A DNA stretch of 64,000 bases, from the NCBI RefSeq assembly GCF_046105845.1, contig NZ_CP151004.1. The stretch is one strand, 5' to 3'. The DNA comes from Escherichia coli (GTDB lineage Bacteria > Pseudomonadota > Gammaproteobacteria > Enterobacterales > Enterobacteriaceae). Position numbers and translations under genes: made by a program. Positions 26,227 to 51,119 of the stretch are shown piece by piece (the first letter of the stretch is position 1; every line of letters begins with the position of its first letter). Below the pieces are notes generated by a model that was not told the origin of the DNA, made no database searches, and worked only from the letters and a program-made list of their open reading frames with translations.

Positions 26227-26472
26227 ATGACCGATCTCTTTTCCTGCCCTGACCACACACTCGACGCACTTGGCCTGCGCTGCCCGGAACCAGTAATGAT
26301 GGTGCGCAAAACAGTGCGCAATATGCAGCCAGGTGAAACGTTGCTGATTATCGCCGACGATCCGGCCACTACCCGCGATATTCCTGGGTTTTGTACCTTT
26401 ATGGAACACGAACTGGTTGCTAAAGAGACGGATGGATTGCCTTATCGTTATTTGATTCGCAAAGGCGGTTGA
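26227..26472 (+). CDS. tusA: Sulfur carrier protein TusA
   Basis: 81-aa ORF with CPxP motif ([14 protein letters not shown]). Confidence 0.95.
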
Positions 26473-26503: not shown

Positions 26504-26568
26504 CCCCTCACCCTAACCCTCTCCCCAGAGGAGCGAGAGGACCGATCGCGCTCAATGTTGCGATCGGT
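26504..26568. repeat. GC-rich intergenic repeat (CCCCTCACCCTAACCCTCTCCCC...) plus hairpin between tusA and zntA; same family as the ugpB-ugpA repeat
   Basis: Shares the 21-mer CCCTCACCCTAACCCTCTCCC and GACCGATCG with 44238-44280; adjacent ACCGATCGC-N10-GCGATCGGT hairpin likely terminates the convergent genes. Confidence 0.6.
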
Positions 26569-26573
26569 TTGCC

Positions 26574-28772
26574 TTATCTTCTGCGCAACAACCTTAACGC
26601 ATTCGCCGTTACCAGCACCGTCGCACCCGTATCTGCCAGCACCGCCAGCCATAGCCCGGTCATTCCTAACAGTGTGGTGACGAGGAAGATCCCTTTCAGC
26701 CCCAGCGCAATAGTGATGTTCTGGCGGATATTGGCGTGAGTGGCGCGTGCCAGTTCAATCATTTGCACCAGGCCGCGCAGGTGGTTATGGGTTAATGCTG
26801 CATCGGCGGTTTCCAGCGCCACGTCTGTGCCACTGCCCATTGCAATCCCGATGGCGGCGGCTTTCATCGCTGGCGCGTCGTTAATACCGTCACCGACCAT
26901 CGCCAGCGGCGCATGTTGATTCAGTTCGGTTACCGCTTTGACTTTATCTTCCGGCAATAGGCCCGCTTTAAACTCCAGCCCCAGTTCCCCGGCGATTGCC
27001 GCCGCTGCGCGTGGATTATCGCCGGTGAGGATCACTCCTTTAACCCCCAGCGCGTTCAGTTCACTTATGGCAGTTGCAGCATCGGCGCGTAGAGTATCCT
27101 GCAATGCAATGATACCCAGCACGTCATCGTTACGTACTACCAGCACTACCGTTTGCCCGGCGCTTTCCAGTTCATTAATCAAACCAGCAAATGCAACAGC
27201 CGGATGTTTCCCGGCAGCGCATATCAACACGCGCTCACCGTTAACCTGCGCTTCAATGCCAGACCCAACCAGCGCCCGCTGTGATTCGGCGGCGGGAATG
27301 GCGAGTTCAGCAACCTGTGCTTCGCGTACGATGGCTTGCGCCAGTGGATGCGTCGCGCCTTGCTCGACCGCCGCTGCCAGTGTCAGCAGTTCAGATTCAC
27401 TAATACCCGTTGCCGGATGAATCGCGGTAACGCGCGGTTTACCGACGGTCAGCGTACCGGTTTTATCAAACGCCACCTGGGTAACACGACCTAGTTGTTC
27501 CAGCGCCGCACCGCCTTTAATCAACGCCCCACGACGCGCTGCTGCTGCCAGCCCGGAGGTTATCGCCGCAGGCGTTGAGATAACTAACGCACACGGGCAA
27601 CCAATCAGCAGCAGCGTCAGCCCTTTATAAATCCACTCTTGCCAGCTGGCGGCAAACAGCAGCGGCGGCACCAGCGTTACCAGCAGGGCGACGGCCATAA
27701 TCGCGGGCGTGTAGATACGGCTGAAACGGTCGATAAACCGCTCAATGGGGGCGCGACGCTCTTCGGCTTCTTCGATCAGTTTCAGAATCCGGTCAATGGC
27801 GCTGGCACCCGGTTCTGACAGCACTTCCAGCGTTACCAGACGGTCTACGCTGGTGGCTCCTGCAGGAACTTTTTCGCCCGTCGCGCGCTCCACAGGAATG
27901 GATTCTCCGGTCAGGGCGCTTTCATCAAAACTGGCAAACGGTGAGAGCAGTTTACCGTCGGCAGGCAAACGTCCACCTGCGGCGACTTCAATCACATCGC
28001 CAGGGCGCAGGCTGTTAATCGCCACCTCTTCACGCTCACCGTTACGCAGGCGCGTGGCGGTTTCTGGTTTCAGCGCCATTAACGCGCTAACGCCCTGACG
28101 CGCGCGGCTGGCGGCCCAGCCTTCCAGTCGTTCACCAATCAAAAACAGCAGCAACACCATCGCAGCTTCAGCCGTTGCGCCAATAAACAGCGCACCAATA
28201 GCGGCTACGCTCATTAAGGTTTCAATGGCGAAGTAGCTGCCGGATTTGATCAGCCGTAATGCCTGACGAGCAATCGGGTACAGCCCAACCAGCGTGGTCG
28301 CGATAAACGCCAGTTGACCGAACGGATGATTAAACTGCTCCAGCCCCCAACTGATTGCCATCAACACGATTAGCGTAATCAGCGGCAAATTCTCTTTCAG
28401 GCGTGATGCTTGCGGTTCGTCGGCGGCCTGTTCATCGCGCAGGGAGTAGCCCGCTTTTTGCACCGCAGATTCAACCTGGGCACGGATGTCATTGTCGGCA
28501 TCCACCACCAGTTTTTCGGTGGCGAACAACACCTGCACCTGATTCACGCCTGCAAGCTGGCGCACGGCATTTTCCACTTTGCGCGCACAGGCGGCGCAGT
28601 CCATGCCGCTGACTTTCCAGCTATAGCGGGTGCCGGAGACGTTTTCAGAGAGCGTTGGCGTGCTGGAACATGCGCCGTCGCAGCAACAGTCGTTGGCGTT
28701 CTGTACCGTGGTTAGCGGTTTGAACGCAGCAAAGTGAGGGGCTTTCTTGCCGTGATTGTCAGGAGTCGACAT
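26574..28772 (-). CDS. zntA: Zn/Cd/Pb-translocating P-type ATPase ZntA
   Basis: 732-aa ORF with N-terminal GMDCAACARKVE metal-binding motif, CPC transduction motif and DKTGTLT phosphorylation site. Confidence 0.96.
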   Translation of the reverse strand: MSTPDNHGKKAPHFAAFKPLTTVQNANDCCCDGACSSTPTLSENVSGTRYSWKVSGMDCAACARKVENAVRQLAGVNQVQVLFATEKLVVDADNDIRAQVESAVQKAGYSLRDEQAADEPQASRLKENLPLITLIVLMAISWGLEQFNHPFGQLAFIATTLVGLYPIARQALRLIKSGSYFAIETLMSVAAIGALFIGATAEAAMVLLLFLIGERLEGWAASRARQGVSALMALKPETATRLRNGEREEVAINSLRPGDVIEVAAGGRLPADGKLLSPFASFDESALTGESIPVERATGEKVPAGATSVDRLVTLEVLSEPGASAIDRILKLIEEAEERRAPIERFIDRFSRIYTPAIMAVALLVTLVPPLLFAASWQEWIYKGLTLLLIGCPCALVISTPAAITSGLAAAARRGALIKGGAALEQLGRVTQVAFDKTGTLTVGKPRVTAIHPATGISESELLTLAAAVEQGATHPLAQAIVREAQVAELAIPAAESQRALVGSGIEAQVNGERVLICAAGKHPAVAFAGLINELESAGQTVVLVVRNDDVLGIIALQDTLRADAATAISELNALGVKGVILTGDNPRAAAAIAGELGLEFKAGLLPEDKVKAVTELNQHAPLAMVGDGINDAPAMKAAAIGIAMGSGTDVALETADAALTHNHLRGLVQMIELARATHANIRQNITIALGLKGIFLVTTLLGMTGLWLAVLADTGATVLVTANALRLLRRR

Positions 28773-42912: not shown

Positions 42913-44229
42913 ATGAAACCGTTACATTATACAGCTTCAGCACTGGCGCTCGGACTGGCGTTAATGGGGAATGCACAGGCAGTGACGACCATTCCGTTCT
43001 GGCATTCTATGGAAGGGGAACTGGGTAAAGAGGTGGATTCTCTTGCCCAACGTTTTAACGCCGAAAACCCGGATTACAAAATTGTACCGACCTATAAAGG
43101 CAACTACGAACAGAATTTAAGCGCGGGGATTGCCGCATTTCGTACCGGCAACGCTCCGGCTATTTTGCAGGTTTATGAAGTTGGCACCGCCACCATGATG
43201 GCGTCGAAAGCCATTAAACCGGTATATGACGTGTTTAAAGAGGCGGGGATTCAGTTCGATGAGTCGCAGTTTGTGCCGACGGTTTCAGGCTACTACTCCG
43301 ACAGCAAAACCGGCCACTTACTCTCCCAGCCGTTCAATAGCTCGACTCCTGTTCTCTATTACAACAAAGACGCCTTCAAGAAAGCGGGGTTAGACCCGGA
43401 ACAGCCGCCGAAAACTTGGCAGGATCTGGCGGACTATGCCGCAAAACTGAAAGCCTCCGGCATGAAGTGCGGCTACGCCAGCGGCTGGCAGGGCTGGATC
43501 CAACTGGAAAACTTTAGCGCCTGGAACGGTCTGCCGTTTGCCAGCAAAAACAACGGCTTTGACGGCACGGACGCGGTGCTGGAGTTCAACAAGCCGGAGC
43601 AGGTGAAACACATCGCCATGCTCGAAGAGATGAACAAGAAGGGCGACTTCAGCTACGTCGGTCGTAAGGATGAATCCACCGAGAAGTTCTATAACGGTGA
43701 TTGCGCGATGACCACCGCCTCTTCTGGTTCTCTTGCCAATATTCGTGAGTACGCCAAATTTAACTACGGCGTAGGCATGATGCCTTACGACGCTGACGCG
43801 AAAGATGCGCCACAAAACGCCATTATCGGCGGAGCCAGCCTGTGGGTAATGCAGGGTAAAGATAAAGAAACTTATACGGGTGTGGCGAAGTTCCTCGACT
43901 TCCTCGCGAAGCCAGAAAACGCTGCCGAGTGGCATCAGAAAACTGGTTATCTGCCAATCACCAAAGCGGCGTATGACCTGACCCGTGAGCAAGGCTTTTA
44001 TGAGAAAAACCCAGGTGCGGATACCGCGACGCGTCAGATGCTGAATAAGCCGCCGTTACCGTTCACCAAAGGGCTGCGTCTGGGCAACATGCCGCAGATC
44101 CGCGTGATTGTGGATGAAGAGCTGGAGAGCGTGTGGACCGGTAAGAAGACACCACAGCAGGCACTGGATACCGCCGTTGAGCGTGGGAACCAGTTACTGC
44201 GCCGCTTTGAGCAGTCTACGAAGTCTTAA
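42913..44229 (+). CDS. ugpB: sn-glycerol-3-phosphate periplasmic binding protein UgpB
   Basis: 438-aa ORF with signal peptide [23 protein letters not shown]. Confidence 0.95.
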
Positions 44230-44237
44230 TTCTCTTA

Positions 44238-44381
44238 CCCTCACCCTAACCCTCTCCCAAAGGGAGAGGGGACCGATCGGCGTGGTATCCAGGTGCCGTG
44301 TCGGTTTGCAACTTCGCTCGGTGGGAAAGTATGCACCGCCTTTCTCCCTCGCCCCTCTGGGGAGAGGGCCGGGGTGAGGGG
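44238..44381. repeat. Pair of inverted GC-rich repeats (CCCTCACCCTAACCCTCTCCC ... GGAGAGGGCCGGGGTGAGGGG) in the ugpB-ugpA intergenic region
   Basis: Two oppositely oriented copies ~100 bp apart, each with its own short hairpin (CCCTCTCCC-AAA-GGGAGAGGG; CCCTCT-GGGG-AGAGGG). Confidence 0.65.
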
Positions 44382-44404
44382 ATCACAACACGAAGAGTTT
44401 AACT

Positions 44405-45292
44405 ATGTCATCATCCCGTCCGGTGTTCCGCTCGCGCTGGCTGCCCTATTTGCTGGTCGCGCCGCAGCTCATCATCACCGTTATCTTTTTTATCTGGCCT
44501 GCGGGCGAAGCGTTGTGGTACTCGCTGCAAAGCGTCGATCCGTTTGGTTTCTCCAGCCAGTTTGTCGGCCTGGATAACTTCGTCACGCTGTTTCATGACA
44601 GCTACTATCTCGACTCCTTCTGGACGACGATAAAATTCAGCACCTTTGTCACCGTCAGTGGTTTGCTGGTGTCGCTGTTCTTTGCGGCGCTGGTGGAGTA
44701 CATCGTGCGCGGCAGCCGTTTCTATCAAACCTTGATGCTGCTGCCGTATGCCGTGGCTCCCGCCGTTGCCGCCGTATTGTGGATCTTCCTGTTTAACCCT
44801 GGTCGCGGGCTGATCACCCATTTTCTCGCTGAGTTCGGCTACGACTGGAACCACGCGCAAAACAGCGGTCAGGCGATGTTTCTGGTGGTGTTTGCCTCGG
44901 TGTGGAAGCAAATCAGCTACAACTTTCTGTTCTTCTATGCCGCGCTGCAATCCATTCCCCGTTCGTTGATCGAAGCCGCAGCCATCGACGGTGCAGGCCC
45001 GATTCGCCGCTTCTTTAAGATTGCGCTGCCGCTTATCGCTCCGGTGAGTTTCTTCCTGCTGGTGGTGAACCTGGTGTACGCCTTCTTCGACACCTTCCCG
45101 GTGATCGACGCCGCCACGTCCGGCGGGCCGGTTCAGGCCACCACGACGCTGATTTATAAGATTTACCGCGAAGGCTTTACCGGACTGGATCTGGCTTCGT
45201 CTGCCGCGCAGTCGGTGGTGTTGATGTTCCTCGTCATCGTGCTGACGGTGGTGCAGTTCCGCTATGTTGAAAGCAAGGTGCGTTACCAATGA
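44405..45292 (+). CDS. ugpA: sn-glycerol-3-phosphate ABC permease UgpA
   Basis: 295-aa MalF-type permease. Confidence 0.95.
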
Positions 45293-50908: not shown

Positions 50909-50998
50909 GCGATCAGGAAGACCCTCGCGGAGAACCTGAAAGCACGACATTGCTCACATTGCTTCCAGTATTACTTAGCCAGCCGGGTGCTGGCTTTT
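50909..50998 (+). ncRNA. ryhB: Fur-regulated iron-sparing small RNA RyhB
   Basis: GCGATCAGGAAGACCCTCGCGGAGAACCTGAAAGCACGACATTGCTCACATTGCTTCCAGTATTACTTAGCCAGCCGGGTGCTGGCTTTT matches RyhB; ends in a GC hairpin plus U-tract; Fur-box-like AT-rich sequence immediately upstream. Confidence 0.92.
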
Positions 50999-51119
50999 TT
51001 TTGATCTTTCGTTTTCAATTTATCCACGGGAAGTGCTTGTGTTCGTTATGCGCACTCCAGTAGGAACCACGTCCGCTTTGCGCTAAGGTGTAAATAATCA
51101 CCTTAAAAAGGACGAAATC

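Follow-up and report, generated by a model that had tools for sequence, protein, structure and literature searches.

An inverted pair of boxC repeats in the ugpB-ugpA spacer of Escherichia coli, a candidate counterpart of the REP hairpin at the same site

The stretch of Escherichia coli DNA analysed here (64,000 nucleotides, hereafter the window) carries tusA/zntA, ugpBAECQ and RyhB, and it raises the question of what the palindromic repeat between ugpB and ugpA is and whether it matters to the operon. An earlier sequence-only reading had described a GC-rich 21-mer family at two loci, with an inverted pair about 100 bp apart in the ugp spacer. Both statements held. The 21-mer CCCTCACCCTAACCCTCTCCC occurs exactly at 26505-26525 and at 44238-44258, both on the plus strand, where no match is expected by chance (0 in 100 dinucleotide shuffles of the window), and GACCGATCG follows directly after both copies. 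The inverted copy at 44360-44380 has 3 mismatches, all in the central triplet (CGG for TAA), leaving 18 of 21 positions complementary, and lies 101 nt from its partner. The loci had been placed correctly, although two coordinates of the reading (26504 and 44361-44381) were one base off. Around the 21-mers the inverted arms extend to 34 nt with 74% complementarity and with 75 nt between them. With the end of ugpB at 44229 and the start of ugpA at 44405, the spacer between the two cistrons measures 175 bp, and the pair lies within it (Table 1). Open reading frames that overlap this spacer (e.g., 44246-44386 on the minus strand, 46 aa) were dismissed as mechanical.

Table 1. Coordinates of the features discussed, in the window unless another sequence is named.
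Feature	Position	Strand	Remark
tusA	26227-26472		convergent with zntA; the two genes flank a boxC copy
Degenerate single type A boxC copy	26505-26541	-	between tusA and zntA
Hairpin ACCGATCGCGCTCAATGTTGCGATCGGT	26542-26569	+	3' of the boxC copy, followed by TTTGCC (to 26573); conserved in K-12
zntA	26574-28772	-	convergent with tusA
ugpB	42913-44229	+	stop codon TAA 44227-44229, 8 nt before the first paired base of the element
Whole composite (type A copy, internal segment, type B copy)	44238-44381	.	144 bp; alignments and consensus matches
boxC/TM_ECO core type A, TTA loop	44238-44270	-	exact match to the published consensus regex
Internal segment	44271-44345	+	75 nt; two family extensions and a central hairpin
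A-side family extension GACCGATCGGCG	44271-44282		within the internal segment
Central hairpin	44272-44305		within the internal segment; seen in predicted folds
B-side family extension CACCGCCTTTCT	44334-44345		within the internal segment
boxC/TM_ECO core type B, CCG loop	44346-44381	+	one stem mismatch; exact consensus-regex match 44346-44380
ugpA Shine-Dalgarno-like GAAGAG	44392-44397	+	7 nt before the ATG
ugpA	44405-45292		ATG at 44405
phnL-phnK spacer, boxC allele	L003 356-531
phnL-phnK spacer, REP allele	L091 356-465		K-12-type

The two arms belong to a repeat family that has carried the name boxC since the 1990s, and whose members were reportedly described as PIT elements by Hoyne and Maher in 2000. 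BoxC, PIT element and TM_ECO (triplex motif) are successive names for the same family, for which the consensus 5'-CCCTCNCCC-N3-6-GGGNGAGGG-N3-GGGNGAGGG-3' was published, with a second loop of TTA defining type A and of CCG defining type B (Holder et al. 2015, NAR 43:10126, PMC4666352). Strain K-12 has 23 copies, and closely spaced inverted pairs always combine one type A with one type B copy (PMC4666352). Both ugp cores match this consensus, with 0 matches expected in shuffles. The left core reads CCCTCTCCC-TTT-GGGAGAGGG-TTA-GGGTGAGGG on the minus strand and the right core CCCTCGCCC-CTCTG-GGGAGAGGG-CCG-GGGTGAGGG-G on the plus strand. The copies face outwards around the internal segment and obey the A+B rule, the left one having the TTA and the right one the CCG loop. 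The box-C class suggested in the sequence-only reading is therefore the right one, and we regard it as near certain that the ugp feature is an inverted pair of these known elements.

Because the family, its two types and the inverted A+B pairs have all been published, the finding as such is already known. The ugp pair shares the consensus, the loops and the intergenic multi-copy habit of boxC/PIT/TM_ECO and shows no essential difference from them. It differs in detail: the ugpB-ugpA locus is absent from the 23 K-12 copies, and its cores are 75 nt apart, against 16-59 nt in the five K-12 pairs. In the available part of the supplements to Holder et al., a study of 62 loci, neither the ugp locus nor the two exact triplex-motif sequences were found. 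For E. coli BoxC, an independent survey gives 32 copies and a repeat length of 56 bp (PMC2267715). When the spacer was used as a query, it matched 42,317 places in 5,374 E. coli genomes, 37 of them plasmid-borne. With a median of 9 places per genome, the repeat is dispersed and not unique to the two loci of the window; such uniqueness was one of the outcomes that the reading had named as refuting it.

Other classes of element were considered for the spacer. The arms typical of REP/BIME sequences (GCC(G/T)GATG...CATC(C/A)GGC, a 35-40 nt palindrome) were not present in the window spacer, and REP/BIME identity was rejected. A search of the whole window against Rfam at gathering thresholds returned RyhB only (50938-51002, plus strand, RF00057, 83 bits against a threshold of 55). 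At E-values up to 10 the spacer gave chance-level matches only, the best scoring 17.7 bits against a threshold of 37. A promoter/terminator scan of 44230-44404 found neither a sigma-70-like promoter nor an intrinsic terminator. The sequence 3' of the hairpin, GGGGAUCACAACACG (also given as GATCACAACACG and GAUCACAAC), contains no U-run, and a GC-rich hairpin without a U-run, together with the empty terminator scan, does not fit the pattern of an intrinsic terminator. The ugp pair is neither a promoter nor an intrinsic terminator.

The second locus of the window, also intergenic, was identified by alignment and from Tables 1, S2 and S3 of Holder et al. as the ortholog of K-12 TM_ECO #16 (zntA/tusA). 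TM_ECO #16 is a 36-nt sequence identical to #9 beside fabI, and Table S3 scores it as 'mutated' in 42 of 56 strains (PMC4666352). In the window copy two G>A substitutions break one consensus block, and only the last two blocks match. The adjoining hairpin may serve as the terminator of tusA; the boxC family extension forms the start of its 5' arm.

Within E. coli, the boxC pair is a minority occupant of the ugp spacer. It was present in 317 of 5426 complete genomes (5.8%; e.g., PCN033 and VCSW7), always as a single copy and at the ugp locus, and 316 of these 317 spacer copies are at least 95% identical. K-12 and most strains have a 97-bp spacer with a REP pair that has nothing in common with the window spacer from stop to start codon, and the GTDB representative of E. 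coli has a third allele, a 100-bp spacer with a Citrobacter-like REP. For the ugpB-ugpA spacer as a whole, E. coli has at least three alleles: two with REP and one with the boxC pair. REP and boxC are unrelated in sequence, the ugp boxC pair lacking the GCCGGATG...CATCCGGC motif of REP/BIME. They take up the same operon site at similar offsets from the stop and start codons, and each is a dispersed repeat family that forms strong hairpins with no U-tract.

Strain N3 carries a second boxC-type sub-allele that is 88% identical to window positions 44230-44404, and in which the type B copy has lost its first block through a 7-nt deletion. Its UgpB and UgpA proteins are identical to those of K-12, so boxC alleles occur in more than one coding background. 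The variant in ECA64 has two substitutions in the type B copy, which are not compensatory. Divergence of the window from K-12 is uniform at 3-4%; only the 3'-terminal 60 nt of ugpB stand out, with 90% identity against 97-100% upstream. The UgpB C-terminus (window 44209-44217) reads ...FEQSTKS in the window, PCN033 and ECA64, and ...FEKSTKS in K-12, E. albertii and the other genera checked. A search for import by recombination identified no donor, because the unique codon changes (EQSTKS for EKSTKS) match none of the other genera.

A similar exchange of alleles was observed at the phnL-phnK spacer, which holds a boxC A+B pair in FDAARGOS_403 and a REP pair in XL1-Blue, the whole spacer being replaced. 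BoxC copies are found in three Pho-regulon operons (K-12 TM_ECO #19 between pstA and pstB, K-12 TM_ECO #22 after phnP and the phnL-phnK pair of FDAARGOS_403, and the window pair between ugpB and ugpA). Their joint presence in pst, phn and ugp is a post hoc coincidence.

We further surveyed the ugpB-ugpA spacers of other Enterobacterales (n = 79; 80 including the window). REP-type sequences were found in 26 of the 79, boxC-type in 15, boxC nested inside a REP pair in one and other hairpins in 37. None of the 79 spacers was empty and none was shorter than 49 nt. A helix of at least 6 bp is present in 80 of 80 spacers, and 82% of the 80 have a fold z-score below -2, compared with 3% of coding controls of the same length. 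In boxC and REP spacers alike, a median of about 9 nt separates the stop codon from the first strong helix, and about 22 nt lie between the end of the last helix and the ATG. REP motifs are present in the spacers of K-12, E. albertii, Citrobacter and Klebsiella, and Escherichia, Pseudocitrobacter, Enterobacter, Leclercia and Buttiauxella each include both allele classes. REP alleles come with a CAGGAA ribosome-binding region and boxC alleles with (A/T)GAG. Since the ribosome-binding region tracks the repeat class, it is haplotypes of the whole spacer that are exchanged or retained. The Kluyvera spacer aligns end to end with that of the window, including the ribosome-binding flank ACAAC..AGAGTTTAACT.

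Several spacers of the survey showed further features. Internal modules of the boxC composite (GGGAGAGGGGACnGTCCGG...) are repeated two to three times in tandem in Superficieibacter, Enterobacter sp., Kluyvera and Buttiauxella (L009, L023, L024, L046), stretching the spacer to 188-308 nt. The 155-nt spacer of a Leclercia adecarboxylata MAG (L032) has a boxC-like hairpin, CCCTCATCCCAACCCTCTCCCACAGGGAGAGGG, nested between the arms of a REP pair, which suggests that one repeat family can insert into, or beside, the other. Five Yersinia and Serratia spacers (L063, L068, L073, L074, L082) have another long repeat-like palindrome in common, GGCTACTGCG..CCAGTCTGGGATTGGGCAGTGCTCG..., possibly an ERIC- or YPAL-type element, and a Rahnella spacer (L085) has three copies of a CCCCTTCGCAGGGGGAGGAGC-type repeat.

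The sequence-only reading had also called the ugp spacer capable of forming a cruciform, and the predicted folds agree with it. The minimum free energy of the ugp element was -84 kcal/mol as RNA (z = -4.4) and -41 kcal/mol as DNA (z = -4.3), with the two copies pairing left to right. The best predicted RNA conformer is one closed hairpin of about 145 nt, which starts 8 nt after the stop codon of ugpB and has its 3' end 24 nt before the start codon of ugpA. This conformer was predicted to be 13 kcal/mol better than a fold with local hairpins only. Taken singly, the type A copy folds locally at 44250-44270 with a predicted -18.4 kcal/mol and the type B copy with -23 kcal/mol; the REP hairpin of the K-12 spacer reaches a predicted -50 kcal/mol. 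The ugpA Shine-Dalgarno sequence GAAGAG was predicted to pair in part, with a probability of about 0.7, with UCUCU at 44232-44236, immediately 3' of the ugpB stop codon. This pairing would permit translational coupling, and we give it little weight because it is not conserved in N3 or Kluyvera.

Comparison with other boxC pairs indicates how the two copies behave together. The ugp composite aligns with the K-12 lldD-trmL pair (TM_ECO 17+18) over 129 bp at 71% identity. Both consist of an outward-facing type A copy on the minus strand followed by a type B copy on the plus strand, the two have extensions outside the triplex cores in common (A side, GGGGACCGnTCGGCG; B side, TTTCTCCCTCGCCCC), and the lldD-trmL pair likewise starts near the upstream stop codon, 11 nt after it. 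These A- and B-side extensions are common to the tusA/zntA, lldD-trmL and phnL-phnK copies and to other genera. The lldD-trmL pair differs in its interior, which is different and shorter, and in its site, the end of the lldPRD operon, whereas the ugp pair lies between the gene for a binding protein and that for a permease. Five length alleles were seen at lldD-trmL. In one of its alleles, from strain STB20-1 (L090, ~255-300), a near-perfect palindrome, GCTGTCTCTTGATCAGATCTCCTGATCAAGAGACAG, stands in place of the interior of the boxC pair; its arms seem to resemble the inside-end sequence of IS50/Tn5.

We compared 20 composites, taken from five E. coli loci (ugp being represented by two strains) and from 14 other species. 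In 17 of them, the outer 9-mers and the inner 9-mers of the two terminal 21-mers are complementary at 9 of 9 positions. Four composites (L017, L018, L021 and L044) have two-sided changes that preserve complementarity. The central triplets are non-complementary in 19 of 20, the exception being L017 (TAA/TTA); they are exactly TAA/CCG in 13 and one-base variants (TAA/TCG or TAG/CCG) in 3 more. In L018, the long-range partner is a perfect match and the local hairpin partner is not, a pattern more in keeping with pairing of the left and right ends, or with conversion between them, than with local hairpins that form independently. In L017, the change in the outer block keeps Watson-Crick complementarity and weakens the triplex.

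Based on these observations, we propose a role for the pair by analogy with REP. REP sequences act as exonuclease barriers and, when located at most 15 nt from a stop codon, as ribosome-stalling elements (PMC12306157). As no promoter was predicted between ugpB and ugpA, the element should be transcribed within the ugpBAECQ mRNA, where it would fold into the closed hairpin of about 145 nt. Such a hairpin would most probably be a barrier to 3'-to-5' exonucleases and stabilise the upstream ugpB segment, as REP does there. It may additionally obstruct terminating ribosomes at the ugpB stop codon, because it begins within 15 nt of that codon. Either the barrier or the obstruction would help to set the ratio of binding protein to membrane components. 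The effect on ugpB versus ugpAECQ expression that the reading had raised is therefore plausible, by analogy with the REP pair in the K-12 spacer. The REP between malE and malF is likewise said to be an RNA stabiliser (Newbury et al., 1987). Stabilising and ribosome-stalling roles have been demonstrated for REP, and not for boxC, and the literature searched yielded nothing usable on 3'-end mapping of ugpB.

The main argument for the hairpin role is that some hairpin, drawn from unrelated families, always lies at the same offsets. Several points speak against it: the constant position of the helix may only reflect a need for insertions to leave the stop codon and the ribosome-binding site intact, palindromic repeats fill many enterobacterial spacers, so that the constant presence of structure may be due to insertion pressure and not to selection, a permissive insertion site could yield much of this picture, the boxC allele is rare and shows no sign of an advantage, and the pairing between the ugpA Shine-Dalgarno sequence and the post-stop region is not conserved. 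We put the REP-like mechanism on its own at roughly even odds. The joint statement, that the feature is boxC and that it acts as a REP-like intercistronic RNA hairpin protecting the ugpB message, is in our view slightly better than an even bet.

With more doubt than conviction, we extend this to a selective account of the spacers: those of ugpB-ugpA and phnL-phnK may be selected for any strong hairpin about 9 nt after the stop codon, boxC and REP pairs being interchangeable, and the two allele classes may be old and shared across genera.

A serious rival is a passive, selfish or neutral repeat: the boxC pair would persist only because insertions are tolerated at the site, and would not meaningfully affect how ugp is expressed. 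In the study of Holder et al., TM_ECO elements showed no connection with gene function, with distance or with position in operons, and earlier assays of PIT elements cited there detected neither promoter nor terminator activity nor an effect on RNA polymerase (PMC4666352); these assays also count against the hairpin role. No consequence is obvious in the 94% of E. coli genomes where REP stands in the place of boxC, and the tusA/zntA copy decays by point mutation, both here and in the strains of Table S3. A passive repeat accounts poorly, however, for the lack of any empty spacer among the species surveyed and for unrelated repeat families at exactly the same position, for two-sided changes that keep the ends complementary, and for the good conservation of the boxC allele within E. 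coli. On balance we doubt this explanation, while taking it seriously.

Holder et al. proposed instability at the DNA level through triplexes or cruciforms (PMC4666352). Such non-B structures, formed in single-stranded or supercoiled DNA, would stall replication and make the ugp spacer a hotspot of rearrangement, which would account for the diversity of REP and boxC alleles. The G-rich strand of type A and type B consensus oligonucleotides, whether or not they contain the mismatch, forms stable intrastrand triplexes in vitro according to CD and NMR, and triplex-motif loci are more variable between strains than controls (PMC4666352). The ugp copies contain the same three blocks as these oligonucleotides. 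The replacement of whole spacers between alleles at ugp, phnL-phnK and lldD-trmL, the tandem expansion of internal modules in four of the spacers surveyed and the predicted DNA fold would all fit. Against this, DMS footprinting in vivo gave no evidence of a triplex and double-stranded TM_ECO behaves as a duplex (PMC4666352), the ugp allele is stable within E. coli, and the outer-block change in L017 spares Watson-Crick pairing at the expense of the triplex. Instability would also be a side effect, not a role in the operon. We consider this explanation improbable for the ugp pair.

The inverted arrangement also invites comparison with transposable elements, and in particular with MITEs and REPINs, the latter reportedly described by Bertels and Rainey in 2011. 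These too, like the ugp pair, consist of two short repeats in inverted orientation, which join in a single long hairpin and behave as one unit. The boxC copies would then be the terminal inverted repeats of a non-autonomous element whose transposase is encoded elsewhere, consistent with 21-nt inverted ends that are conserved across loci and genera, with multiple copies and with interior sequence common to several loci. However, no RAYT or transposase was found in association with the ugp element, and we know of no cognate transposase for the boxC pair. No direct repeats were found at the borders of the element and no target-site duplication at any copy examined. Clean empty sites were absent at ugp, lldD-trmL and phnL-phnK, where alternative alleles differ across the whole spacer or keep remnants. 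MITEs have terminal inverted repeats, which are present, and target-site duplications and precise filled/empty pairs, which are not. Given the lack of a duplication and of an empty site, and the near-absence from plasmids, the MITE reading is unsupported beyond the inverted ends. Association with mobile elements was likewise not found by Holder et al. (PMC4666352). A transposable element seems to us quite improbable.

Finally, an attenuator or terminator within the operon that lowers transcription of ugpAECQ relative to ugpB, suggested by a very stable GC-rich hairpin directly 3' of ugpB and by attenuation reported for BIME/REP (a reference listed in PMC12306157), is very improbable given the missing U-tract, the empty terminator scan and the PIT elements without terminator activity (cited in PMC4666352), and strong termination would abolish expression of the transporter because no internal ugpA promoter is predicted.

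As a finding, the boxC pair between ugpB and ugpA re-identifies a catalogued repeat family and changes little. It makes modest additions: the three alleles of the E. coli spacer, the mutual substitution of REP and boxC, at identical nucleotide positions, in two Pho-regulated operons as well as across genera, and the fact that no species examined has an unstructured ugpB-ugpA spacer. To our knowledge, boxC has had no assigned function in over 30 years. If the pair is truly an RNA stabiliser of the REP type, this would be the first functional assignment for boxC. The family would then have a role in mRNA stabilisation or in the control of translation termination, maybe especially in operons of the Pho regulon (pst, phn and ugp), and the spacer variants would be natural, isogenic-like alleles with which to test how intercistronic hairpins set the subunit ratios of ABC transporters.
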